Assembly: GCA_044229975.1 (NCBI GenBank)
Contig: JBGARZ010000016.1
Coordinates: 64,001 to 128,000 of the forward strand
Length of the DNA stretch: 64,000 nucleotides
Source of the DNA: Polyangiales bacterium
GTDB taxonomy: Bacteria; Myxococcota_A; Polyangia; Polyangiales; Ga0077539
Direction: 5' to 3'
Numbering within the stretch: the first letter of the stretch is position 1; each line of letters opens with the position of its first letter. A program made the position numbers and the translations under genes. Positions 8,858-43,761 of this stretch are shown one piece after another. The notes below the pieces were generated by a model. The model was not told the DNA's origin. It was given only the letters and a program-made list of their open reading frames with translations, and did not search any database.

Positions 8858-11518
8858 GTGAACCCGTCGGACGTCGAGACCTCTTCCGCCTCCGCCCGTC
8901 CGGGCCGCACGCCCGCGGCGGGTGACGTCCTGGCCGAGCGCTACCAGCTCGTGCAGCGCATCGCGAGCGGAGGGTCGGCGGAGGTGTTCGAGGCCGAGCA
9001 CGCGGTCACCAGGAGACGTGTCGCGGTGAAGGTGCTGCGCGCGGACGCGAAGGGCGAGCTGGCGAGCGTGGAGAGGTTCTTCCGCGAGGCGAGCGCGTGC
9101 GCGGGCATCGACAGCGACCACATCGTCGCGGTGCTCGACTGCGACGTCGACCGCACCTCCGGCGCGCCCTTCATCGTGATGGAACTCCTTCACGGCAAAG
9201 ACCTCGCGCGCTTCATCGCCGACACGCTCGCGCAGGGCACGCCCGTCCCCCCGTCCCTCGCGATGAACCTCTTGAAGCAGGTCGCCTCGGCCCTCGACAA
9301 GGTGCACGCGCAGGGGATCGTTCATCGCGACCTGAAGCCCGCCAACCTCTTCCTGACCTTCCCGAGCGACGGCCCCGCGCGGGTGAAGGTGCTCGACTTC
9401 GGCATCGCCCGCATCGCCGCCGACGGCGTCGGCTCGGGCGCCAGCCGCGTCGGCACCCCGCTGTACATGTCCGCCGAGCAGCTCGCCGGCAGCGACACCA
9501 TCACCCTCGCCGCGGACATCTGGTCCTTCGCCCTCATCGCGTACGAGCTCCTCGTCGGCCACCCCTACTGGACGGGCAACACCGCCGCCTCGCTCTTCGC
9601 CCGCATCCCCGACGCCGAGGCCCACCCGAAGCCCACCGAGCTCGCGGTGCGCCACGGCGTGCACCTCCCGCGCGCCTTCGATCCGTGGCTCCTGCGCTGC
9701 ATCGACCCCGACCCGACGCGCCGCCCGCCCTCCGTCGGCGAGGCCCTCGGTGACCTCCTGCGCCTCTACGACCCGAAGGCCACCCAGCCCCCGAGCCGCG
9801 CCTCGGTGTCACCCGTGGCGCCCATCCCCTCGCGCCTCGCGCCTCGCGCCTCGTCGTCGCGCCCGCCGCCGCCGCGCGCCTCCATCCCCGCCGTCGCGCC
9901 GTCGCGGCCGTCGGTGCCCATCGTGGTCGCGCCGCCGTCTGCGCCGCCCGCGCCACCCGCGCCACCCGCGCCGATGACCGAGGAGCTCGACGACGACGAG
10001 ATCGAAGACCTCACCGAGACCTCCGACGTCCCGATCGGTCTGCGCGAAGCCCTCGCGCCCATCACCCCCTCCACCCCCGCGCCGTCCGCCTCCGAGGCCC
10101 GCACCCTCCGCGTCGAGCCCATCTCCGAGCGCGTCGACGAAGACCGTCGGCTCACCATCCCGCTCGCCCCCGCGGTGGCCTCGCTCTTCGGTCCGCCCCT
10201 TCGCCACGACGTCGAGCCCGACGAGCCCGTCACCGCCGAGCTCCCCGCCGCGCACCTCCCGTCCACCGCCGCGCCGCGCGACCTCGCCGACTCCCCCGAG
10301 CTGCCCGACCCCGCGCCCGAGCCCGTGGACACCCTCGGCGCCAACGTCGCCGCCGCGCTCGAAGACCCGCACGCCTCGCGCCCCGCCCGTCGTGTTCCGC
10401 GCTCGCTGGAGCTCGCCGCGACGGCGCTGCTCCCGGTGCAGGCGCCCGCGCCTCCTCCGCCGCCCGCCGTGAAGCCCGTGATGTTGATCGCCGCGGCGGT
10501 GGTCACCCTCGGGCTCGCCAGCGTCGCCGGGTGGGTGCTCTTCGGCCGCCGCGTCGCGACGCCCGCGAGCGTGCGCGGTGACGGCGTGTGGCACGGTCCG
10601 AGCGCCTTCGAGAGCGCCTCGCTCGCGTCGACCACGTCGGTCTGGGCCGGGGCGCTGCGCGTGCGCGTCGACGCGACGCCGCCCGCCTCGGGGCTCGACA
10701 CTGCTCGCACCTTCCACGCGCTGCTCTCGGCGCACCGCGCGGGCGTCGCGCTCCCGTCCGATCGCCTCGTCGCCATGGTCGTCGCGCTCGACCGCTTCCG
10801 CACGCCGCGCGGCTGGCCCGCGCCCGACCGACCGGGGCCCGACGCCGAGGCCACCGCGCAGGCGGCCCTCGCGTACGCCGCGATGGCCGAGGTCACGCGG
10901 GCCGACACCGGGCGCGTCCGGGTCAACGTCGCCCGCACGGCGCTGCTCGAACTCCAGCGCCCCGATGGGTCGTTTGAGCTCGCGGGCGACCCCACCGCGG
11001 CGCCGCTCGCGACCACCTCGCTCGCCGTGAGCGCGCTGCTCGCCGCCGAGTCGGCCGCGGGCGACGCCACGCCCGACGCCATCACGGCCCGCCGCCGCGC
11101 CGTGCATGTGCTCCGCGACGCCCTCCAGCGATCGGACCACCCGGTGTGGTCCGCGCCGCCGGCCCTCGACCGCGCCATCGCGGCGCTGTGGTCGGCGCGC
11201 GCGCAGGCCCACGACGTCGACCCGGCGGACGAGGGCATCGCCGCCCGCTACGCCGATCACCTGGGCGAGCGCTGCGCCGACCAACGGTGCGCGGTGATCG
11301 CCCCCCTCGCGGAGGCGCCGTGGGTGCCCGGGGCGCTGGTGACCTCCGCGCGGCTGCTGCGGGACAGCGCGTCGCTGCCGCCGTCGTCGCTGCGCTCGCT
11401 CTCGACCTTCGTGCGAGCGGGCATCGCGGCGATGGACCGCGACCGCGCCTACGACGGCGGCGGCGACACACGCTGGCTCGCGTCGGCGCTGTCCGCGGCG
11501 GGCGAGCTACAGCGGTAG
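8858..11518 (+). CDS. Membrane Ser/Thr protein kinase with C-terminal alpha-helical (prenyltransferase/QW-like) domain
   Basis: VAVK, HRDLKPAN, DFG, GTPLYM; Pro-rich linker; TM; LLELQRPDGSF motif. Confidence 0.88.
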   Translation: MNPSDVETSSASARPGRTPAAGDVLAERYQLVQRIASGGSAEVFEAEHAVTRRRVAVKVLRADAKGELASVERFFREASACAGIDSDHIVAVLDCDVDRTSGAPFIVMELLHGKDLARFIADTLAQGTPVPPSLAMNLLKQVASALDKVHAQGIVHRDLKPANLFLTFPSDGPARVKVLDFGIARIAADGVGSGASRVGTPLYMSAEQLAGSDTITLAADIWSFALIAYELLVGHPYWTGNTAASLFARIPDAEAHPKPTELAVRHGVHLPRAFDPWLLRCIDPDPTRRPPSVGEALGDLLRLYDPKATQPPSRASVSPVAPIPSRLAPRASSSRPPPPRASIPAVAPSRPSVPIVVAPPSAPPAPPAPPAPMTEELDDDEIEDLTETSDVPIGLREALAPITPSTPAPSASEARTLRVEPISERVDEDRRLTIPLAPAVASLFGPPLRHDVEPDEPVTAELPAAHLPSTAAPRDLADSPELPDPAPEPVDTLGANVAAALEDPHASRPARRVPRSLELAATALLPVQAPAPPPPPAVKPVMLIAAAVVTLGLASVAGWVLFGRRVATPASVRGDGVWHGPSAFESASLASTTSVWAGALRVRVDATPPASGLDTARTFHALLSAHRAGVALPSDRLVAMVVALDRFRTPRGWPAPDRPGPDAEATAQAALAYAAMAEVTRADTGRVRVNVARTALLELQRPDGSFELAGDPTAAPLATTSLAVSALLAAESAAGDATPDAITARRRAVHVLRDALQRSDHPVWSAPPALDRAIAALWSARAQAHDVDPADEGIAARYADHLGERCADQRCAVIAPLAEAPWVPGALVTSARLLRDSASLPPSSLRSLSTFVRAGIAAMDRDRAYDGGGDTRWLASALSAAGELQR

Positions 11519-11614: not shown

Positions 11615-14600
11615 TCACGGGCGGGTGATGTTGACCATGTACGAGCCCGACGCGGTGCCGATGGTGCAGCCGTCGACGTAGAGCGCGTGCAGGCCGGCGC
11701 CCGCGGGGATGGTCGAGTTGACCGTCGAGCGCGCCCCGCAGAAGAGGCCGTTGACGTCGTCGTTGCAGACGCTGACCGACGCGCGACCGGCGCTGCGCTG
11801 CTCCAGCTCGGTGTCCCAGGTGGCGCGCAGGCAGGTGGACGCCGAGAAGGCGCCGCCCGCGAAGGAGCCGCAGGTGTACCAGTAGTAGGTGTTCTCCGGG
11901 CCGCCCGAGCAGCACGAGGTGGTGCTGATGCGGCCGGTGCCCGTGGTCGAGCCGCTCAGCAGCTGGCCGGAGCCCGCGTTGAGCGCGGTGAGCGTGCCGT
12001 TGCCGATGGGCAGGTGCTGGAACCGGATGCTCGATGCACCCGACGCGCAGCCCGAGAGGACGAGGAAGTACGTCCCGGCTTCGAGGCGCACCATCACCTG
12101 GCTCGCGCCGAAGGACGGCAGGTTGCAGCCGGAGAGGCCGCTGTCGTCGTTGCAGGCCAGGCCGTTGGACAGGCTCGACGCCGTCACGGTGGCGCCCGCG
12201 CTGTTGAGGAAGAACAACCCGGTGTCCCACGCGGTGCCGATGGTGTCGGCGTAGACGACCTCCGGGGCCGTCAGCGTGAAGCGGTAGAACACGTCGTTGC
12301 CCGTGGTGCACGAGCACCCCGAGGAGGAGCCCTCGTTGCGCGCGTTGGTGGTGTCGGCGTTGAGGATCGACGACGACCGGGTCATGTCGATGGTGACCGC
12401 GTTGGCGCGCAGGTCGTTGGCCGGCGGCGTGCGGCAGGTGCCCTGGCGGCAGAACGTCCCGGTGCCGCACTGGCGGTTGCAGCCGCCGCAGTTGTTGTTG
12501 TCGTTCTGCGTGTCGACGCAGGTGCCGCAGTAGGTCTGGCCGACGGTGCAGGTGCCGACGCCCACGCGGATCTGGTAGGGGCCCGCGTTGCAGCCGTCGG
12601 CGATGACCGTGTGCAGGCCCGCGCCCGCCGGGATGGTCGAGGAGACCGTCGCGCGGTTGCCGCACTCCAGGCCCGTGTCGTCGTTGCAGACCGCGGTGCC
12701 GGCCGTGCGACCGGGGCTGCGCTGCTCGACCATGTTGTCCACCGTCGTGGTGGTCGTGGTGCCGCACGACGACGCGTAGAACGTCCCGGCCGTGGAGCTC
12801 GGGCAGCTCACCCACCAGTAGGAGTTCTCGGGGCCGCCGGAGCAGAGGCAGCTACCGCTGGCGCTGGCGCTGGTGCCCGATGTGGTGCCCGTGAGCAGGG
12901 TCGTGGTGCTGGTCGGGGCGATCAGCACCGACGGGCCGTTGCCCGCCGCCGAGTGCTGGAAGTGGATGGTCGCCATGCCCGACGAGCAGCCCGAGAGCAC
13001 GAGCAGGTAGGTGCCCGGCGCGAGGCGCGCGAGAACCTGGCTGGCGCGCCCGGTCGAGATGCCGCCGCAGAAGGCGAAGTCGTCGTCGCAGACGCGGCCG
13101 CCGGTGGTGCCCGCGCTGGTGAGGTTGACGCCCATCGCGTCCTGGAAAAACAGCGACGTGTCCCAGGTGGTGCCGATGGTGTCGGCGTAGACGAGCTCCG
13201 GCGCGGTGAGCGTGAAGCGGTAGTAGACGTCCTGCCCCGAGGTGCACGAGCACGCCCCGGCGGTGTTGGTGTCGTTGGCCGCGTTGGTCGTGTCGACGGT
13301 GAGCGTCTGGCTCGGCATCGTCATGTTGATGACCGTGGCGCCCGCGCGCTGGTCGTTGGCCGGAGCCGTGCCGCTGCGGCAGCCGCCGCCCGCGCAGATC
13401 TGGCCCGTCGGGCAGGCGTTGCCGCAGCGCCCGCAGTTGGCGCGGTCGCTCTGGAAGTTGGCGCAGCGCGCGGCCATGCCCGTACCGCACAGCATCTGGC
13501 CGGTCGGGCAGGCGCAGGCGCCCGCGGTGCAGGTCTGGCCGCTGGCGCAGGCGCGCCCGCACATGCCGCAGTTGGCGCTGCTGGTCTGCGTGCTGACGCA
13601 GGTGCCCATGCAGTCCGTCTGGCCCGACGGGCAGGCGCAGGCGCCCGCGGTGCAGGTCTGGCCGACGCGGCACGCGGTGCCGCAGGCGCCGCAGTTGGCG
13701 GCGCTGGTCTGCGTGTTGACGCAGGCGTCACCGCAGAGGGTCTGGCCCGACGGGCACGCGACGGCGCACATGCCGCCCATGCACATCTGCCCGCTCGGGC
13801 AGGCGCGACCGCAGGCGCCGCAGTTGGCGGCGCTGGTCATGGTGTTGACGCAGGTGGAGCCGCAGAGGGTCTGCCCCGCGGCGCAGGTGCAGACGCCCGC
13901 GGTGCAGCTCTGCCCGCTCGGGCAGGCGCGGTCACACGCGCCGCAGTTGGCGCCGCTGGTCTGGAGGTCGACGCACGCGGTGCCGCAGCGGGTCTGGCCG
14001 GTGGCGCAGGCCATGGTGTCCATCGCGCAGGCGCCGGCGCGGCACACGAGGCCCGCGGCGCACGCCATGCCGCACGATCCGCAGTTGGTGTTGTCGGTCT
14101 GGAGGTTGAGGCAGGTGCCCATGCAGCGGGTCTCGCCCGCCGGGCAGGCGGCCGTGCCGTCCATGCACATGCCGGCGGTGCAGGTCTGGCCGCTGGCGCA
14201 GGCGCGCCCGCACATGCCGCAGTTGGTGGCGTCGGCGTTGGTGTCGATGCACGCGCCCGAGCAGTCGGTCTGCCCGGTGGGGCAGGTGCGCGCGCCGCAA
14301 GCGCCCGCGGTGCAGGCCATGCCCGTGGGGCAGGCGGTGCCGCAGGTGCCGCAGTTGCTGTTGTCGGTCTGCGTGTTGACGCAGGTGCCGGCGCAGGCCG
14401 TCTGGCCCGTCGGGCAGGTGGTGACCGCGCGGCAGGTGCCGCCCATGCAATCCTGGCCGGAAGAGCAGGCGGTACCACACGCCCCGCAGTTGCTGGTGTC
14501 GGTCTGCGTGTCGACGCAGGTGCCCGAGCAGTCGGTCTGACCGCCGGTGCAGGTGATGGGGGCGTTGCAGCTACCGGCGACGCAGGTCTGGCCCGAGGCG

Positions 14601-34957: not shown

Positions 34958-36172
34958 ATGAACCTCCTCCCCGCCCGCAACGCTTCGCGCCCCGGTGACG
35001 ACCCGATCTTCGCGCTCAACCGCGAGGCCACGCAGCGCAAGGCGGCGGGCGAGCGTGTCATCAACGCCACCGTCGGCGCCCTGCTCGAAGACGACGGTCG
35101 GCTCGCCGTTCTACCCTCCGTGACCGACGCCATCCGCGAGGTCGCCCCGCTCAAGGCCGCGGGCTACGCGCCCATCGCCGGCGCCCCCGAGTTTCTCAAC
35201 GCCGTCATCCACGACCTCCTCGGCGGAACCTCCCTCGCCGAAAACGCCACCGCCTGCTCCACGCCGGGCGGAACGGGCGCTCTTCGTCATGCCGTCTCGA
35301 CCTTTCTGGAGCGGGGCCAGTCTCTGCTCACCTCCTCGTTCTTCTGGGGCCCCTACGGGACCATCTGCGACGAGCACGAGCGCACGCTGACGACGTTTCC
35401 GATGTTCGCGGCCAACGGTGGCTTCGACATCGACGGCTTCGTGAAGGGCCTCGACGAGACGGCGGCGAAGCAGGGGCGGGTGCTCGTGTTTCTCAACGAC
35501 CCCTGCCACAACCCGACGGGCTACTCGATGACCGCGGCCGAGTGGACGGGCGTCTCCGGCGCGCTCGCGGACGTCGCGAAGCGCGTGCCGACGACGGTGC
35601 TCGCCGACGTGGCGTACCTCGCGTATGCGCGGGACACGCGGTCGTTTCTCAAGCACCTGGAGCCGCTGGCCGAGCGGGCGGCGGTGTTGTTCGCGTGGTC
35701 GGGGAGCAAGGCGTTCACGCAGTACGGGGCGCGCATCGGGGCGCTGGTGGCGTGCACGCACGACGCCGCGCAGCGCGACGCGATGCAGCGGGCGCTCGCG
35801 TGGGCGTGCCGCGGGACGTGGAGCAACTGCAACGCGGCGGGGCAGTACGCGGTGGCGCGGTGCCTGACGGACGCGACGCTCAAGGCGAAGGTCGACGGCG
35901 AGCGCGAGGTGCTGCGGGCGTTGCTGGATGCGCGGGTGACGGCGTTCAACAAGGCGGCGGAGGGGACGGTGCTGCGGTATCCGCGGTACGACGGCGGGTT
36001 CTTCGTGACGGTGTTTTCGGACAACGCGAAGAGCGACGCGGAGAAGCTGAAGGCGCGCGGGGTGTTCGTGGTTCCGTCGGCGGGCGCGCTGCGGGTGGCG
36101 CTGTGCTCGGTGGCCCAGGCGGACGTCGCGACGGTGGTGGGCGCGATCGATGAGGTGTTGCGCGGGGGGTGA
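34958..36172 (+). CDS. Class I/II PLP-dependent aminotransferase
   Basis: INATVG, TPGGTGAL, NDPCHNPTGYS, DVAY, SGSKAFTQYGARIG. Confidence 0.92.
   Translation: MNLLPARNASRPGDDPIFALNREATQRKAAGERVINATVGALLEDDGRLAVLPSVTDAIREVAPLKAAGYAPIAGAPEFLNAVIHDLLGGTSLAENATACSTPGGTGALRHAVSTFLERGQSLLTSSFFWGPYGTICDEHERTLTTFPMFAANGGFDIDGFVKGLDETAAKQGRVLVFLNDPCHNPTGYSMTAAEWTGVSGALADVAKRVPTTVLADVAYLAYARDTRSFLKHLEPLAERAAVLFAWSGSKAFTQYGARIGALVACTHDAAQRDAMQRALAWACRGTWSNCNAAGQYAVARCLTDATLKAKVDGEREVLRALLDARVTAFNKAAEGTVLRYPRYDGGFFVTVFSDNAKSDAEKLKARGVFVVPSAGALRVALCSVAQADVATVVGAIDEVLRGG
36085..36172 (+). repeat. Direct repeat copy 1 (last 29 codons of the aminotransferase, including the stop)
   Basis: 80/88 identical to 37143-37230, ungapped. 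Confidence 0.92.
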
Positions 36173-36175
36173 CGG

Positions 36176-37084
36176 TCAGCGCCCGAGGCGCGTGCGGATG
36201 CGGGCCTGGGCGTCTTCGGGCAGCGTCGCGAGGTAGTCCGCCGGGAGCGCGCGAAGGGCCGTGTCGGGCAGCGCGAGCACGCGGTCGGCCTCCGAGAGAC
36301 CGGCGAGGTCATCGGGCGTGATGGCCGCGAGTCGCAGTTCGAGGGGAATGACGGCGAGGAGATCGCGCAGCGCCTGGTCGGCGGCGTCTTTGACGAGGGT
36401 GGCGTCCTTCATGATGGCCTTCCAGCGTGGGTCGGTAGCGAGCTGGGTGATTCCCTGGAGGAGACGGTAGTACAGCTCCCGCTCCCTGTCATCGAGGGCG
36501 CGCGGCTGCGCGGGTGCTTGCAGGCACGCTGGCGACACCGCGTACAGCAGGTGCTCGCCGGGGTTGGGCCACGCCACGCTCGTCTCCACTACGCGCAGCG
36601 CGAAGCCCTGCACGCTCCCAACGTGCACGCCTCGCGCGTCGGTCACCGTGAGCACCGCTCCGAGCGCTTCGAGCTGCGCGCGGAAGCGGGGCGTCAGCGT
36701 CGGGGCCACGACGCGGAACGCGACATCGCCCGGCGAATGCAGACCTTCGAGCGCCATGTACTGGTAGGCATAGGAGAGCAGTTGCAACGCGTCGGCGCGT
36801 TCGAGCGCGTCTGTTGCGCCCTTGAAGTGCACGAGGTTGTGCTCGTGCAGATCGTCGAGCACGCTGCGCAGGTACTCGGCCTGCCAGTCGACGGTCACCC
36901 CGACGCGCCGCACCACCACCGCGTCGATGCGGCGAGGCTCGCGGGTCAGCGCGTACTCCGCTACCACGTGCCAGAGGTCGCGCGGCAGGAGAAGCTCCAA
37001 CAGCAGGATGAGCAGTGGGTGCCACGCCGTTCGAAGGTGAACCGCGTCGCTGAGCGGGTCAGCGGGTGGTGGAGTGGGCTCCAT
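36176..37084 (-). CDS. PD-(D/E)XK nuclease-like protein, Rpn/YhgA-like architecture
   Basis: WHPLL..AEYAL..EPRRIDAVVVRR..HNLVHFKG N-terminal domain; helical C-terminal tail with LAGL/LALP repeats. Confidence 0.6.
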   Translation of the reverse strand: MEPTPPPADPLSDAVHLRTAWHPLLILLLELLLPRDLWHVVAEYALTREPRRIDAVVVRRVGVTVDWQAEYLRSVLDDLHEHNLVHFKGATDALERADALQLLSYAYQYMALEGLHSPGDVAFRVVAPTLTPRFRAQLEALGAVLTVTDARGVHVGSVQGFALRVVETSVAWPNPGEHLLYAVSPACLQAPAQPRALDDRERELYYRLLQGITQLATDPRWKAIMKDATLVKDAADQALRDLLAVIPLELRLAAITPDDLAGLSEADRVLALPDTALRALPADYLATLPEDAQARIRTRLGR

Positions 37085-37090
37085 CGCGCG

Positions 37091-37120
37091 CCTCTACTCA
37101 CGCCGCGAGCGGACGTGCAA
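37091..37120 (-). promoter_or_regulatory. Sigma70-like promoter candidate giving a leaderless transcript
   Basis: Minus strand TTGCAC-N18-TAGAGG-N6-ATG; no clear separate Shine-Dalgarno. Confidence 0.4.
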
Positions 37121-37142
37121 GCTGGGTACGCCAGGGAATGTC

Positions 37143-37230
37143 CGCGCTGCGGGTGACACCGTGCTCGGTGGCCCAGGTGGACGTGGCCACGATGGTGGGC
37201 GCGATCGATGAGGTGTTGCGCGCGGGGTGA
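37143..37230 (+). pseudogene. Direct repeat copy 2: orphan duplicate of the aminotransferase 3' end
   Basis: Reads ALRVTPCSVAQVDVATMVGAIDEVLRAG* versus ALRVALCSVAQADVATVVGAIDEVLRGG*. Confidence 0.9.
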
Positions 37231-37240
37231 GCGGGTCGCT

Positions 37241-39940
37241 TCAGGGGAAGCCGACGACCTGCGTGGGTAGGCAACCGTCGCCGCAGGTCCCGTCTCCCGC
37301 CTGTCCCCGGACGGTGTTGCCCCAGCAGGCGACGGTCGCGTCGGAGAGGACGGCGCAGACATGATCCAGGCCGGCCTGCACGCGCACCGCTGGCCGCGAT
37401 AGCGCGACGGGCTCCGGCATCAACCGACGCACGATGTCACCGGCGCCGAGCTGGCCCGCGTCGTTGCGGCCCCAGCAGTACACCGCTCCGCTTTCGGTGC
37501 GAGCGCAACTGAAGGCGATGCCTACCGCGACCTCGACGACTCCCAACAGGCCCGCCACCACCACCGGGGTGGAGCGGGTCATCGTCGTGTTGTCCCCGAG
37601 CGCACCATCGATGTTCGACCCCCAGCACCGAACCGAACGATCGCCCATCACGGCACACGCGTGGTCATCCGCCGCGTCGAGGTCCAACGCCCCGGAGATC
37701 CCGGATACCGCGCCTGGAATGTTGCGGCTGACGGTCGTGCCGTTGCCGAGCGTTCTGGAGCTGTTGGCCCCCCAGCACAGCACCCTCCCGTCGGCGCCCC
37801 TCGCACAGTTGTAGTCGCGCCCGGACCCCAACTGGGCAGCGTCCGTCAGGCCCATCACCGCCACCGGCTCGGAGGCGTAGGCGGAACTGCCGTTGCCGAC
37901 CTGACCGAGTTCGTTGCCGCCCCAGCACTGCACCGTCCCCGCCGCGAAGCGCGCGCAGACGTTCCTCTGCCCGTGCGTCAACTGAACCGCTCCAGGCACA
38001 CGATCGACCCGTTCGGGCACCGGGCGGATGGACCCCGCAAGCGAGGTGAGAAGGCTGAAGTCGTTGTCGCCCCAGCACCAGATCGACCCGTCTCGGCGGC
38101 GTGCGCAGCTCCGGTCGCCGCCGAGGAAGACCTGGTCGACCTCGTCGATGCCGACGGCCGCCACGGGGGTCGCCCGCGGCACGGTGGTCGCGTCTCCCAG
38201 CTCTCCGAAATGGTTGTCGCCCCAGCAGCGCACTCCGCCGTCGGCGAGGACGGCGCACGTGTGGCGCGCCGAGGCGTCGAGCCCGACGACGTTGCGGAGC
38301 CCGACGACCGCGACCGGCGTGGCGCGTATCGCGTTCGACCCGTCGCCGAGGCGCCCGCTGGCCGAGGTACCCCAGCAACGCAGCGAGCTGTCCCCCAGTC
38401 GCGCGCAGACCGACCTCGCGCCCGAGCTGACGTCGACGACCCCGGCAAGGCCCGGCACCGCCGCGGGCAGCCCGCGCTCGGCAGCAAGACCGTTTCCGAG
38501 CTGGCCGTGGGTGTTGTTTCCCCAGCAGTGGACGGAACCGTCCGCTCGGCGCGCGCAGTTGTGCGCTCCTCCCGCCGTGAGCTGCACGACCCCGGACAGT
38601 CCCTCGACCGGTACGGGTCGGTCGGAAGGCGTGCTGCCGGTCCGCCCAAGTCGGCCGTCGAGGTTGCTGCCCCAGCACCGGACGGTGCCGTCGACCAGTC
38701 GAGCGCAGGTGTGGTCTGACCCAAGCGCGAGCTCGGCCGCAGGGGGGAGACCCACGACCGCAACCGGCGCGTGGCGGAGCGTCCGGGTGCCGTCGCCGAC
38801 CTCCCCGACCGTGTTCGAACCCCAGCACCAGACGGAGCCGTCGGCGCGCCGGGCGCAGGTATGGTCCGAACCCGCGCGGACCTCGACCACCTCCGTGAGC
38901 CCGGCGACCACGGCCACATCGTCGGTATCCCCCGGCACGCCGCGACCGAGCTGGCCCTGACCGTTGCTCCCCCAACACCGGACGGTGCCGTCGACCAGTC
39001 GAGCGCAAGTGTGGTTGTCACCCGCGCTGATGGCCGAGACCCCGGAGAGGCCCGGAACCACCCTCGCAACCCGCGCCGCCGTGGGGCGGTTGCTGCCGAG
39101 TTGATTGTAGTTGTTGCGCCCCCAACAGCGAACCGTGCCATCCGCGACGCGGGCGCAGGTATGGTTGCCGCCAGCGTTGATCTCCACGACCGCCGTGAGC
39201 GAGACCACGGGCACCGGCGTGAGCCGTTCGGTGGCGGCGGTGTTGTCCCCGAGCTGCCCGTCGACGTTGGCGCCCCAGCACCGCGCCGTGCCGCCCCGCA
39301 GGACGGCGCAGGCGTGACTGCCTCCGACCGAGATCTGCTCGACCACGACGGCCGGGCGGCAGCGCCCCAGCTCGCAGATCTGGTCCGCCCCGCACGCACC
39401 GCCGCATGCGGTCGAGTCGGGCTGCGTCGCCGCATCTGTTGGAGGTGGGGGTTGGTCTGAAAGGGGTAGATCCGGCGGCGATGGGGCGTCGGTGGTGGCG
39501 TCCTCCATGGCGTCAGTGCGGAGGACATCGACCGCGGGGACATCGATCGCGGGGACATCGACCGCGGGGACATCGACCGCGGGGACGTCGACCGTGGGGA
39601 CGTCGACCGTGGGGACGTCGACCGTGGGGACGTCGTCTTGCGCGTCGGGGTGATCGCCCATCGGCGTGACTGCGTCGGTCGCGACGAGTCCGCTGTCGGG
39701 GAGCGCGGAGTCGAGGGAAGGCACGAGGATGTCCTCCTCGCTCGGACGTGAATCGCGCTGCTCTTGAGGGGTATCGGGAAGCGCAACCGCGGAATCGATC
39801 GAAGGCGTCGCGTCTTCGTTTGGTCTTTCCTCATCGAGGACGAGGACGTCGTTGGTGGAGGGCGACACCGTCGCAGTCGGAGCGCAACCGCACCAGACGA
39901 CCAGAAGCGCGCACCACCCAAGCCCCGCCCCTCTCACCAT
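37241..39940 (-). CDS. RCC1-repeat exported protein / probable lipoprotein
   Basis: About 14 repeats of GxxHTCA..DGTVRCWGxNxxGQLG; hydrophobic N-terminus with Cys; acidic linker. Confidence 0.9.
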   Translation of the reverse strand: MVRGAGLGWCALLVVWCGCAPTATVSPSTNDVLVLDEERPNEDATPSIDSAVALPDTPQEQRDSRPSEEDILVPSLDSALPDSGLVATDAVTPMGDHPDAQDDVPTVDVPTVDVPTVDVPAVDVPAVDVPAIDVPAVDVLRTDAMEDATTDAPSPPDLPLSDQPPPPTDAATQPDSTACGGACGADQICELGRCRPAVVVEQISVGGSHACAVLRGGTARCWGANVDGQLGDNTAATERLTPVPVVSLTAVVEINAGGNHTCARVADGTVRCWGRNNYNQLGSNRPTAARVARVVPGLSGVSAISAGDNHTCARLVDGTVRCWGSNGQGQLGRGVPGDTDDVAVVAGLTEVVEVRAGSDHTCARRADGSVWCWGSNTVGEVGDGTRTLRHAPVAVVGLPPAAELALGSDHTCARLVDGTVRCWGSNLDGRLGRTGSTPSDRPVPVEGLSGVVQLTAGGAHNCARRADGSVHCWGNNTHGQLGNGLAAERGLPAAVPGLAGVVDVSSGARSVCARLGDSSLRCWGTSASGRLGDGSNAIRATPVAVVGLRNVVGLDASARHTCAVLADGGVRCWGDNHFGELGDATTVPRATPVAAVGIDEVDQVFLGGDRSCARRRDGSIWCWGDNDFSLLTSLAGSIRPVPERVDRVPGAVQLTHGQRNVCARFAAGTVQCWGGNELGQVGNGSSAYASEPVAVMGLTDAAQLGSGRDYNCARGADGRVLCWGANSSRTLGNGTTVSRNIPGAVSGISGALDLDAADDHACAVMGDRSVRCWGSNIDGALGDNTTMTRSTPVVVAGLLGVVEVAVGIAFSCARTESGAVYCWGRNDAGQLGAGDIVRRLMPEPVALSRPAVRVQAGLDHVCAVLSDATVACWGNTVRGQAGDGTCGDGCLPTQVVGFP
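39524..39635 (-). repeat. 15-bp tandem repeat x 7 encoding VDVP(T/A)
   Basis: GAC(A/G)TCGACCG(C/T)GGG units read directly. Confidence 0.9.
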
Positions 39941-40061
39941 GGGAACCGGAGTACCACGTTGAAAGGATCGCGGACAGACGACCACCTCGTCTCTCGCTCA
40001 CTCCTCCGCGGTCACCTTCTTCCGGCACGGCGGCGTTGGGACATTGCTCCGGAAGAGCGCC

Positions 40062-40190
40062 CGCCTACGCCCGCGGTGGACGTCCTTACCCGGAGGGACG
40101 CGACCGCCCACGCCCGCGGTCGTCGTCGTCCGTATCGCGGAACGCCGGAAGCTCCCTCCGGAATCGAGAACCGCGGGCGTGGGCGCTCGC
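40062..40190. repeat. Intergenic direct + inverted repeat cluster
   Basis: CGCC(C/T)ACGCCCGCGGT at 40062 and 40105; exact reverse complement of the second copy at 40170-40185. Confidence 0.7.
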
Positions 40191-40195
40191 TCCGA

Positions 40196-40969
40196 CTATC
40201 CCTTCGTCTTCGCCGCCTTCTTCTTCCGCCGCGGCGGCGTCGTCCGAAACGCCGCCAGCACCGGGTCGCCCGCCGCGAACGCGTACCCCGCCGCCGCCCG
40301 GATGCGCGCGAGCCCCCGCGACGCCAGCGTGTACACCGCGTCCCGTCGCTTGCGCAGCGCCGTCGCGCCGCTCACCGCGTGCAGTTGCGGCCGCAGCCCC
40401 TCGGCGAGCGCCACCATGCTCTCCAACCGCGCGCCCTCGCCCTGCGTCAGCGCCGCGAGCGTCCCCGCGTGCAGCGCCCAGAACGCCTTCATCTCCCCCG
40501 CGTCGTTGACCAGGTCGGCGATGCCTTCGCCGCGCTTGATCTTGAGCGCCCAGCGCAGCACCGCGCGGTTGCTCCGAAAGAGGTGCCGGATGCCTCGCAG
40601 CACCGCCGCCTGCGCCGCCCGCGCGTCCCGCTCCGCGCGCCCGATGGCCGGGTCGACCGGCTGCGCCGCGGCCGCGCCGACGTCGGCCACGGTCATCGCC
40701 AGCACCGCCACGAGGTCGGCCGTCCATCGCAGCTCCTCGCTCGTCAGCGGCGCGTCCGGCGCCATCGGAACCGCCACCAACGCCGCCCCCTTCGCCAGCG
40801 CCGTCTGCGTCGCGCGCACCATCCGCGGCAGCCGCTTGCCGAGCGCTCCTGGCGCGCGCGTCACCTCGTTGGACGGCAGCGCCGCCGCCGCCGCGTGCAC
40901 CGCCGCGATGCGCTCGGCCGACAGCCCCGTCGCTTTGTTCTTCCGCCCGCTCGCACGTGCCTTCGCCAT
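40196..40969 (-). CDS. Hypothetical alpha-helical protein with basic termini
   Basis: CAGGAG RBS upstream of ATG 40969; Ala-rich helical sequence. Confidence 0.65.
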   Translation of the reverse strand: MAKARASGRKNKATGLSAERIAAVHAAAAALPSNEVTRAPGALGKRLPRMVRATQTALAKGAALVAVPMAPDAPLTSEELRWTADLVAVLAMTVADVGAAAAQPVDPAIGRAERDARAAQAAVLRGIRHLFRSNRAVLRWALKIKRGEGIADLVNDAGEMKAFWALHAGTLAALTQGEGARLESMVALAEGLRPQLHAVSGATALRKRRDAVYTLASRGLARIRAAAGYAFAAGDPVLAAFRTTPPRRKKKAAKTKG

Positions 40970-41171
40970 CCCCACACGCTCCTGGTGCTGCGCCGCGCGT
41001 CCCCGATGGGCCGTCGCAACGCGGTCATCCATCGCTATCACGGCCCCGACGGTGCCAACAGGCGCCCGTCACCCGCGCCGCGGCACCCGGCAGCGACGCG
41101 CAGTCGCCAGAGCCCTGCGCGCAACGCCCGGATGGGCTGTCGCAACACCCGTCAGGGGCGTCGCGATCCCC

Positions 41172-42818
41172 TTACGGGCACTCGCAGGTCGCCTCGCGGC
41201 ACCCGGTGAGCCTCACCCGCAGCGTGTAGTCGCCCTCGTCGTCGAAGGCCGTCGACCCATCGACGACGATCACCACCCACCCGTCGCGCGGTGCCACGTA
41301 CGTCTGCGCGCCCGACCCGACGCGATCGCGGCACCAGAGGTCGCGGCTGCAGGTGACCGTTCCGCAGTCGGCGCCCTGGTAGATCTTGAGCGTGGCGTCC
41401 CACGACGACGTCACACACCCGTCGCCCCTGGTGAGCGTGACGGTGATCGTCTCTCCCGCGCGCGCCCAGATCCGGTACGCGTGGTCGCCGCCGGCGTCCC
41501 AGCTGCAGTCGTCGAAGCGGTTGGACGCGCTGCACGTGTCGCTCGCCAGCGAGAAGCCCGCCGTCGCCGCCGCCACCCGCCGACCGATCACCCGCGCTCC
41601 AGTGCAGCGGTCGCGGTTCTGCGTCCCGTTGGCGCACGCGTCCGCAGGAAACCCGCAGATCGGCGTCCCCGTACACGCACCCGCCGACGCGCACGCGTCG
41701 TTGATGGTCAGCGCGTTGCCGTCGTCGCACGGCCCCGTGCGCGGCGTCTGCATGCACGTCGCCGTCCCCGCACACGCTCGCGTCATGCACTGGTCGCTGT
41801 TGCACGTCACGGCCGTCCCGACGCAGCTCCCGGCCGCGCACGCGTCGGTGTGCGTGCACGCGTTGCCGTCGTCGCAGCGCGCCGCCGTCCGCCACTGCCA
41901 CGTCCCGCCATCGTTGGTGCAGTTGAACGTCTGCCCGCCGCACGCCACCGACTGACACAGCGAGTGCGTCGCGCCATCACACGCGAACTCCCCGCCGCCA
42001 CCGCACGTCCCCGCGGCCCCGGCGGCGCCGCAGCCCTGACAGGCGCGGGCAGTGCGCAGGAGGTTGGCGTTGCACTGGTCGGCGCAGAGGCCCGCGGTGG
42101 TGCGGCACCCCATCGACGGATCGCAGCTCCCGAGGCAACACTGGTTGCCCGCGCCGGGCGCACACGAGGCGGGGGCTGCGCCGCGACACGTTCCTGCGCC
42201 GTCGCAGGTGTCGGTGGTGGTGCAGGCGGCGCTGTCGTCGCAGGGGGTTCCCATCGGGTGGCGGGCGCAGGCGCCGAGGCCGTTGCAGACACCGGTGGTT
42301 CCGCAGGTGGCGGGGGCCTGGGCGGCGCACTCGGACTCGGGGTCGGTCGCGATCGGGTGGTTGGAGCAGCGGCCCTCGGAGCCCGCGAGCGCACAGCTCC
42401 GGCACGCCCCATCGCATGCGGTGTCGCAGCAGTAGCCGTCGACGCACGGACGGGCGCCGCACACGGCCGACGCGGTGGCGGGCGTGCAGGCGACAGGCCC
42501 GACCGGGGGAATGTCGACGGGCGGGATGTCGATGGTCGGTGGGATGTCGATGGGCGATGGGACGTCGATGGACGATGGCACATCGATGCGAGCGACGTCG
42601 GGAGTGGGCGGCACATCGATGCGAGCGGCGTCGACGACGGGCACATCGGCACGCGGAACATCCATGCCTGGGACGTCGGCACCGGGCACGTCGGGGACGT
42701 CGTCGGCCTCGACCACGTCGATGACGATCGAGGCGTCGTCGGTCAACATGTTTCCCCGCGCACAGCCGAAGCTCGCGAGCAGACCAAGGAGCGCGAGGCG
42801 AGCGTGCGGTGACCTCAT
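41172..42818 (-). CDS. Cys-rich lipoprotein with C-terminal PPC-like beta-sandwich
   Basis: Lipobox ASFGC; IDVP linker; CVDGYCCDTAC and CDDGNACT repeats; DHAYRIWA..VIVVDG..GDYTLRV. Confidence 0.82.
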   Translation of the reverse strand: MRSPHARLALLGLLASFGCARGNMLTDDASIVIDVVEADDVPDVPGADVPGMDVPRADVPVVDAARIDVPPTPDVARIDVPSSIDVPSPIDIPPTIDIPPVDIPPVGPVACTPATASAVCGARPCVDGYCCDTACDGACRSCALAGSEGRCSNHPIATDPESECAAQAPATCGTTGVCNGLGACARHPMGTPCDDSAACTTTDTCDGAGTCRGAAPASCAPGAGNQCCLGSCDPSMGCRTTAGLCADQCNANLLRTARACQGCGAAGAAGTCGGGGEFACDGATHSLCQSVACGGQTFNCTNDGGTWQWRTAARCDDGNACTHTDACAAGSCVGTAVTCNSDQCMTRACAGTATCMQTPRTGPCDDGNALTINDACASAGACTGTPICGFPADACANGTQNRDRCTGARVIGRRVAAATAGFSLASDTCSASNRFDDCSWDAGGDHAYRIWARAGETITVTLTRGDGCVTSSWDATLKIYQGADCGTVTCSRDLWCRDRVGSGAQTYVAPRDGWVVIVVDGSTAFDDEGDYTLRVRLTGCREATCECP

Positions 42819-43086: not shown

Positions 43087-43761
43087 ATGGCGACCTCCAG
43101 CACCGCAACCACCCTCGACGACATCCCGGCGCCGCCGCGCCCGGGTGAGGCCGACGCCCTCGACGAGGTGCTCGTCGGGCTCCCCGCTCCGCCGCGCGCC
43201 CGCCGCCGTGTCCTGGCCGTCCTGCTCACGGCCATCCCCGTGGCGTCGCTGTTTCTCGCGTCGCAGATGCTCGACGACGTGCGCTACGCCATGGCCTCGG
43301 CGACCCCGGTCGCGCTCGGCGACGGGCTCACCGCCAACCCCGCCAGCGTCGGGCTCAACCAGTACGTCACGCTCCGTGCGACCCCGGGCATCGCCGGGGC
43401 CGTCACCTACTCGCGCCTGCTCTGGCCGGGTGAGCATCTCGTCTTCCCGGTCGCCGGTCGCGACGGCGCCGCCATCTACGTGCAGGTTTCGCAAGACGGC
43501 GGTCAGGCCGCCATGACGCGCGCGGAGTTTCAGGGGCGGCTCACCCGCTTCGGTGGTTCGGGCGGGCGCTACGCGGGCGTCAGCCGCTACCTCCACCACT
43601 CCCTCCGCGCTCCCGTCCACGGCGACACCTGGCTGCTCGTGGACGGCGCCACGCCCCGGCGTCACCTCTGGGCGCCGCTCGTCGTCACGCTGCTCCTGGC
43701 CATCGCCATCACCGACCTCGGTCTGCTCCGTCGGCTGTTTCGCGCCGACCCGCGCGCCTAA
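43087..43761 (+). CDS. Hypothetical membrane protein (two TM segments)
   Basis: Two hydrophobic helices flanking a beta-rich soluble domain; typical codon bias. Confidence 0.75.
   Translation: MATSSTATTLDDIPAPPRPGEADALDEVLVGLPAPPRARRRVLAVLLTAIPVASLFLASQMLDDVRYAMASATPVALGDGLTANPASVGLNQYVTLRATPGIAGAVTYSRLLWPGEHLVFPVAGRDGAAIYVQVSQDGGQAAMTRAEFQGRLTRFGGSGGRYAGVSRYLHHSLRAPVHGDTWLLVDGATPRRHLWAPLVVTLLLAIAITDLGLLRRLFRADPRA

Follow-up and report, generated by a model that had tools for sequence, protein, structure and literature searches.

A gene of predicted nuclease fold between two copies of an aminotransferase gene end, one of 15 sites with duplicated gene 3′ ends in a Polyangiales genome

The locus analysed here is a 970-bp insertion behind an aminotransferase gene of a Polyangiales bacterium. 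It lies in a window of 64,000 nucleotides, i.e., the whole stretch of DNA that was analysed (assembly GCA_044229975.1, contig JBGARZ010000016.1, positions 64,001 to 128,000). Its features are compiled in Table 1. A preliminary description of the sequence had noted that the last 88 nt of the aminotransferase gene, including the stop codon, recur downstream, and this was confirmed by alignment: the direct repeat has 8 mismatches (91% identity, E 6e-28), a start-to-start spacing of 1058, and exactly two copies in the whole genome (10.0 Mb, 39 contigs). The copies differ by GCG>ACA (Ala>Thr, two changes), CTG>CCG (Leu>Pro), Ala>Val, Val>Met, Gly>Ala, and two synonymous G/C swaps. As had also been stated, the only content between them is one antisense open reading frame, named P0001, together with 58 bp upstream of it and 3 bp after the host stop codon. 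The insert is thus a single gene; it contains no methylase and no restriction-modification pair, and no transposase was found in it with a Pfam scan or among the structural matches of P0001. The earlier remark that an integrase is missing held for the contig of the window, which has no match to PF00589 or PF00239. No inverted repeat pairing the insert ends was seen among the 25 longest of 86 listed ones, nor at the junctions of the 13 aligned sites described below.

Table 1. Features of the aminotransferase locus (positions of the window)
Feature	Position	Strand	Basis
Host gene, class I/II aminotransferase, 404 aa	34958..36172	+	PF00155, E 2e-32
Repeat copy 1, functional aminotransferase 3′ end including stop	36085..36172	+	Translation matches ortholog ends
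Cargo gene P0001, 302 aa	36176..37084	-	Open reading frame list; predicted PD-(D/E)XK fold at residues ~20-185, helical tail
Predicted gene-within-gene, 78-aa C-terminal protein	36176..36423	-	Shine-Dalgarno-like GGAAGG and Met225 (codon 36412-36410)
Putative active-site motif E43...D54...H86-F-K88	36821..36958	-	Alignment columns
Promoter-like TTG-N21-TA element, within the 58 bp upstream of P0001	37095..37120	-	Homolog comparison
Repeat copy 2, orphan decaying 3′ end	37143..37230	+	Repeat comparison; damaged at conserved codons
RCC1-repeat gene	37241..39985	-	PF13540/PF00415; missing behind the ortholog in same-genus loci
Likely older post-stop flank	40173..40198	+	Loose end of one related-strain contig
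Conserved gene next to the aminotransferase at the empty site	43087..43761	+	Same-genus locus comparison

The aminotransferase gene is conserved across the family, and orthologs with 82-89% identity were present in all eight same-genus genomes. Copy 1 encodes the ortholog-like end LRVALCSVAQADV, which agrees with the protein ends in these genomes, and copy 2 is the decayed one. We infer that copy 1 is the incoming replacement end, its donor origin being judged from other sites of the genome, and that copy 2 is the displaced original gene end. Of the earlier interpretation, the integrase-free insertion at a gene end with attL/attR-like topology, the decay of the downstream copy, and the entry by recombination at the gene end are supported. 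Directly after copy 2 the sequence GCGGG follows at 37231, and a putative older flank at 40173 opens with the same GCGGG.

The same arrangement would result if two strains of a metagenome had been joined at the aminotransferase end during assembly. The assembly consists of 39 contigs with 3% estimated contamination, the two inner junctions (36172/36176 and 37142/37143) were not spanned by any sequence among the listed records, and strains diverge right after the stop codon. However, conserved codons are damaged in copy 2, which also lacks the upstream gene body, and genomes that were assembled separately show this architecture too (L075, L115, L248). In addition, a 151-nt contig of an independent run (X1) is letter-identical to 37170-37320 and covers the right end of copy 2. 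This shows that the decayed copy and the right junction exist outside of the present assembly, and an artefact is regarded as extremely unlikely. Excision between the repeats was not seen and no joint skipping the insert was listed, in data that comprised only low-depth contigs of other samples; the sequencing runs compared held at most 0.10 of the locus words, and gaps in them carry no weight. No RNA dataset was listed as holding the locus sequence.

Empty alleles, which had been suggested as a check, were indeed found. In six of the eight same-genus genomes the aminotransferase gene has as its next neighbour, within about 80-240 bp, the gene found here at 43087. The seventh genome carries another insert of 1.1 kb between the two, and in the eighth the aminotransferase had no called gene behind it. 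At the DNA level the match to the 43087 gene starts 7-199 bp past the stop codon in six of seven congener loci, and past the 1.1-kb insert in the seventh. The stacked inserts in the window amount to 6.9 kb and include P0001, copy 2, the RCC1-repeat gene, and two more genes. The congeners with an empty site also lack the other 5.9 kb, and the exact pre-insertion allele is not among them. The RCC1-repeat gene was probably inserted at this site earlier, separately from the 88-bp event. A contig of run X12 (190 nt, depth 2.3) reads past the aminotransferase stop into 21 letters, all of which could be aligned by eye to 40173-40198 when two small gaps were allowed; this is moderate evidence and suggests an allele without P0001 and without the RCC1 gene. 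Contigs of runs X3 and X4 (about 94-96% identical) also diverge from the window sequence at this stop codon. The aminotransferase stop is a variable slot, at which the RCC1 gene would have been inserted first and the nuclease cassette later.

The two further genes of this slot encode an unannotated 280-aa protein (40196-41041, minus strand) and a Cys-rich lipoprotein-like protein (41172-42818, minus strand), and neither gene was present in the congener loci. Another same-genus contig (L032, G001 C140) has a different insert in the slot, 456-870 bp past the aminotransferase stop, and we take its small protein to resemble an IS200-type or RAYT transposase. Post-stop matches of 18-19 bp in L032, L035, L037, and L038 were rejected as likely chance matches of DEVL codons to the next gene. 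In genome G019 a distant family gene lies 1.65 kb behind the aminotransferase gene, without a duplication.

The footprint is not confined to this locus. The genome was analysed with a direct-repeat scan and with 60 isolated low-copy repeats out of 360 candidates, without a stop-codon filter; the genes were called with an own codon-score caller, which can misplace starts. Of the 60 repeats, 15 pairs (14 sites) consist of a gene 3′ end and a downstream orphan copy of it, and a bactofilin site with three copies brought the total to 15 sites. Three further pairs had the second copy upstream of the 3′ end and have the appearance of decayed paralogs or of repeats. Detailed alignments of 13 sites gave repeat lengths of 30-483 bp, with ends between -10 and +23 nt from the stop codon and one at +56. 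In 14 of 15 pairs the outer repeat end lies at most 12 nt from the host stop, and at +37 in the remaining pair. Under a uniform-junction null the probability for the 14 pairs is 5e-8, a crude value since the window around the stop was picked after seeing the data and one pair is non-independent. The cargo is diverse and includes an IS91 transposase, an MmeI methylase-helicase-T5orf172 locus, XisI, a DUF4258/MqsA-like pair, an AAA_21 ATPase pair, a Schlafen/AlbA protein, a P0001 paralog, and unknown proteins. A test with 26-nt probes revealed ten downstream versus two upstream 3′ orphans in this genome, as well as five upstream 5′ orphans, with some repeat noise in each class. At six other sites the congeners were compared; most of them had other genes behind the stop at five of the six, and the exact empty junction was recovered only at the hyp216 site.

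Flanks of the attL/attR type are the topology of integrase-mediated islands at gene 3′ ends. The sites could be remnants of such site-specific islands, or non-autonomous elements that are served in trans by an integrase or a long-duplication transposase. The genome contains 12 PF00589 and 3 PF00239 matches, and the stacking of arrays at one site resembles that of islands. In addition, the locus shares the replacement end in front and the displaced fragment behind the insert with such islands (PMC2853133). Unlike at integrase islands, however, no recombinase match lies in or beside any of the 15 sites, the many targets are unrelated and share no common core, and terminal inverted repeats were not seen at the junctions. 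No shared end motif was recognized by eye across 13 sites. Furthermore, the left ends shift: at the two sites with three copies they lie 44 and 65 nt, and 80 and 68 nt, before the stop, which indicates that the crossover point is not fixed. A recombinase acting in trans is thus very improbable.

On balance, it is considered probable that the insertions arose by capture of related-strain DNA, anchored by homology, and that this DNA supplied a replacement gene end and left the old one downstream. The incoming DNA would have consisted of the aminotransferase tail of the related strain and that strain's own downstream gene. It would have entered by recombination through the shared gene tail, and its far end would have been joined illegitimately, or the DNA may have entered as a circle. 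The incoming tail would then end the gene, while the old tail would stay downstream and decay, and the 970-bp nuclease-fold cassette would be a passenger and not the driver. Suitable donors exist, as the genes that follow these host stops differ among congeners, and the repeats would end at the stops because the homology between strains ends there. Three other sites speak for a donor tail. At the nitroreductase site, 35 identical nt are followed in the orphan by TGA and the flank ATCACC, a flank that congener G003 shares. The working copy has TAG instead, and all five congeners have TGA. At a hydrolase site the copies end with AGC GCG TGA (Ser-Ala-stop) and TCG ACT CAG TGA (Ser-Thr-Gln-stop), respectively. 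To judge from these codons, the copies at both sites look like two alleles and not like one copied sequence. At the hyp216 site the outermost orphan lies at the junction that is ancestral in two of five congeners. These sites, together with the stop-anchored ends, favour donor-tail capture. ComEC and DprA are encoded in the genome, which is weak support as 10 of 14 and 11 of 14 control genomes, respectively, also have them.

The main competitor is a true target duplication by break repair, in the original reading of Kobayashi: foreign DNA would patch a double-strand break or a staggered nick close to the gene end, the recipient's own 30-480 bp would be copied by replication, and selection would retain only events that leave the gene whole. 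We hold this to be rather unlikely, although several observations point to it. A double-strand breakage was proposed in PMC2853133, and the repeats in its cases often span start or stop sites. Some repeats of the present set overrun the stop (+23, +37 to +56), the perfect 53-bp repeat at locus L212 lies wholly past a stop, and tiny gaps between convergent genes at many sites argue for strong selection. In contrast, selection alone predicts an equal reach into the downstream gene, and no repeat of the 15 pairs reaches beyond +37, except at two sites with overlapping gene ends. Near-identical copies with different in-frame stop codons are also not expected from copying.

Several results weigh against the capture of a donor tail. 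A donor allele with the aminotransferase gene and P0001, but without the orphan, was not found; the closest homologs P0002 and P0003 (91% and 88%) were outside the comparison. The inner repeat at hyp216 overruns the stop by 23 nt, of which the last 9 belong to DNA from an earlier insertion, and the repeat at the PEGA site extends 37-56 nt past the stop. These two overruns fit a copying of the recipient's own target equally well. The orphan at an ABC-permease site lacks the native last 10 nt, and at the 88-bp site itself only the two synonymous G/C swaps indicate two alleles. The mismatches fall on third codon positions at 52/544, on first positions at 16/541, and on second positions at 19/544. 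Without the PEGA site the spectrum is 34 versus 26, the third positions are GC-rich, and one site accounts for 18 of the 52 third-position changes, so that the spectrum leans to allelic divergence, but discriminates weakly. Homology-facilitated illegitimate recombination (HFIR), as studied, usually deletes recipient DNA. It is also described as rare (PMC5361080). Lastly, genes of the P0001 family are enriched in the cassettes (4 of 51 loci versus 45 of 8012 genes), which leaves room for a contribution of the nuclease.

In the preliminary description P0001 and its flanks had been interpreted as a minimal mobile unit that enters gene ends by homology or by nuclease-stimulated recombination. In this view the nuclease would cut close to gene ends and promote the insertion of its own gene. 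The flanks of the family loci were compared. Of 64 distinct full-length family genes in the loci retrieved, 51 could be evaluated (at least 500 bp on each side); the flanks span 0.7-8.6 kb, and larger cassettes can be missed. A duplication of the neighbour's 3′ end was found at four loci, namely P0001, a paralog in this genome, L075 (37-46 bp), and L115 (33 bp). Five loci have low-complexity or palindromic intergenic repeats, which were not counted, and 42 have neither, so that 47 of the 51 lack the duplication. No shared element end was found in the up- and downstream sequences of 21 homologs. Moreover, 14 other sites have this signature around unrelated cargo, and 13 of the 15 sites are devoid of a family gene. 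Two groups of lone nuclease genes served as controls: the footprint occurs within 1.5 kb at 1 of 21 loci of the unrelated Transposase_31 genes and, in the 3′-end form, at 0 of 18 PDDEXK_2 loci. The rate of the P0001 family resembles that of another lone accessory nuclease. A lack of flanking duplications at the homologs had been named beforehand as a refutation of the mobile unit, and it largely applies; the reading as a nuclease-specific mobile unit is not supported. The predicted PD-(D/E)XK fold, the presence of several copies in some genomes and none in others, and the fraction of paralogs in such cassettes (2 of 3 in this genome, 3 of 22 in P0001's own clade) would agree with a self-mobile nuclease. 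The same is true for two single-gene inserts with an own promoter-like element, and for the increase in RecA-independent recombination upon Rpn overexpression reported in PMC5350276. However, in view of the loci without duplication, and of a clade with His at the (D/E)xK position, a self-mobile nuclease is very unlikely.

The positive Transposase_31 (Rpn) control locus (L248:535-2581), from a different genome of the order, has a flanking duplication of 347 bp with 94% identity that ends at the neighbour's stop. One PDDEXK_2 gene (L212:1189-2277) lies between perfect 53-bp repeats that start just past the neighbour's stop. Locus L252 had been flagged as a duplication, but turned out to be a paralog duplication.

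The PD-(D/E)XK-like label given earlier to the P0001 protein is borne out by the predicted fold, but has no support from Pfam, NCBIfam, or PDB sequences; the searches of these and of PADLOC yielded nothing useful, and a PADLOC match to PDC-S41 was rejected (E 0.007, 46 residues only). An AlphaFold2 model (pLDDT 84) was aligned using VIA-align with NucS/EndoMS (Z 8.5, root-mean-square deviation 3.5, 105 aligned residues), followed by McrC (Z 7.7), Can2 (7.3), and AF1548 (7.2), and most top rows were PD-(D/E)XK nucleases. The Z values are middling, and the list of matches is consistent. Foldseek gave a probability of 1.00 for EndoMS at E 0.028, and nothing at E 0.001 or better. The model thus predicts a restriction-endonuclease-like PD-(D/E)XK core. 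In the ESM Atlas unnamed Myxococcota clusters and one DUF4351 cluster at 0.89 were retrieved, which is a lead only. In the family alignment E43, D54, and K88 are conserved, and the P0001 clade has H-F-K where distant members show E-[FY]-K. His86 stands at the column of the catalytic Glu, and the conserved D92/E95 might substitute for it. Because of the H-F-K motif, the predicted nuclease activity is uncertain.

In total, 135 homologs of P0001 were found, and the named ones stem from Polyangiales and other myxobacteria. A profile retrieved 3020 matches at E 0.001 (50%-identity representatives) without a Pfam name, and no Pfam match was obtained for 47 + 82 family members. The distribution is patchy, and the copy number varies among the genomes of the family from none to several. 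The C-terminal region has zero to five seven-residue repeats across the family. At the domain border a Met with a Shine-Dalgarno match of at least 4 nt is present in 44 of 49 family genes versus 24 of 151 other Met codons (of 54 genes compared, five have no border Met; the sequences are related and not independent), and in the P0001 clade the Shine-Dalgarno-like sequence is largely forced by the W-K-A codons. A strict sigma-70 scan found no promoter upstream of P0001. A TTG-N20/21-TA element, however, precedes 11 of 21 homologs versus 403 of 7431 genes of this genome (5.4%), and thus the cassette likely brings its own promoter.

This layout leads to the prediction that the cargo encodes an Rpn-like toxin-antitoxin or defence nuclease, with a long toxic product and a short, internally started antidote. 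Such a role would explain the retention of the cargo and its patchy spread. Like the Rpn/YhgA-like genes (PF04754, PF12784) treated in PMC10400941, P0001 is a lone gene of predicted PD-(D/E)XK fold with patchy, multi-copy occurrence and tandem duplications, and its family has a predicted internal start ahead of a variable, repeat-bearing C-terminal tail. In contrast to Rpn, it has no Pfam or profile-profile similarity (hhalign probability 1.3 with Transposase_31 and 0.1 with PDDEXK_2, compared with 98.5 for a control pair; target alignments built from 22 and 20 loci, respectively), its clade has His in place of the catalytic Glu, and the repeat unit has seven residues versus four in Rpn. The rpn genes are described as being without target-site duplications (PMC10400941). 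By analogy, P0001 may act like Rpn, but it is not classed as Rpn. A joint reading would combine a recombinase-free capture at stop codons, which replaces gene tails, with a gene-within-gene toxin-antitoxin lineage founded on P0001, marked by the His-type active site and the seven-residue repeats, whose breaks drive the capture of itself and of other cargo. This combination is distinctly unlikely.

Two family loci show arrangements as in rpn arrays: at L124:8565-10700 the gene is tandemly duplicated, as is known for rpn, and at L123:9070-10090 it is preceded upstream by a copy of its own 3′ end. At five loci of G009 and of metagenome contigs (L016, L067, L144, L143, L065) the family genes lie amid imperfect intergenic repeats of about 50 bp on both sides; these arrays are REP-like, with a short palindrome upstream.

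The locus belongs to a known class, the insertion with long target duplication described by Furuta, Abe and Kobayashi (2010; PMC2853133), and the assumption of an undescribed mechanism was therefore not upheld. The shared traits are an insert below 20 kb, a variable duplication above 30 bp often spanning a start or stop site, no mobility gene, and an empty site in relatives, and the published cases include a lone nuclease gene (mcrA) and orphan methylases. Unlike the restriction-modification insertions of that report, the present insert does not carry a restriction-modification system, 15 sites occur in one myxobacterial genome, the repeats end sharply at the stop, and two sites suggest two alleles and not a copied target. 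A second parallel is offered by the displacement and orphan arrays (rhs/cdi, Vibrio T6SS) for which HFIR was proposed (PMC5361080). There, too, a conserved gene stretch serves as the anchor, new DNA is placed behind it, the old end is pushed downstream, and events stack; in the present case, however, ordinary core genes are the hosts and still encode the same product, and the cargo has no relation to them. The literature search, with incomplete coverage, yielded no report of such a pattern in myxobacteria. IS1549 and IS1634 are insertion sequences with long duplications. The insert differs from this type, exemplified by IS1630 in PMC2853133, in that neither a DDE transposase nor terminal inverted repeats were found. 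A report on short-repeat deletions was set aside (PMC3119063).

The locus alone is an ordinary example, and the weight lies in the 15-site set and in the unnamed nuclease family, a straightforward candidate for one more defence toxin-antitoxin system of the Rpn-like kind. How insertions with long target duplication arise is a question that dates back to 2000, and 15 events with stacked repeats and differing stop codons are material to decide between a copied target and a donor allele.

Several further arrangements were observed in the genome. Two stacked sites (L091:1684-10460 in G000 C11 and L093:1061-13150 in G000 C19) have three 3′-end copies and two cargo blocks each, one block with a P0001 paralog and another with an MmeI-type restriction-modification locus of 57-61% GC. 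The inserts of the bactofilin site contain three copies of an inverted-repeat element of 39 bp (AGACACTTTCAC...GTGA.AAAGTGTCT type), at L093:1157-1195, 10611-10649, and 11899-11937. Two mirror cases, each bracketing two or three cargo genes, are a duplicated gene start of 30 bp (G000 C24:102499-104566) and a 55-bp intergenic duplication upstream of an HhH-GPD repair gene (L107:1632-4231, intergenic stretch C23:338631). An integron-like region (L110 and G000 C19:429000-435600) contains a tyrosine recombinase, a cassette gene with 51% GC, and a fragment of an IS91-type transposase, and the repeats beside the recombinase are presumably attC-like.

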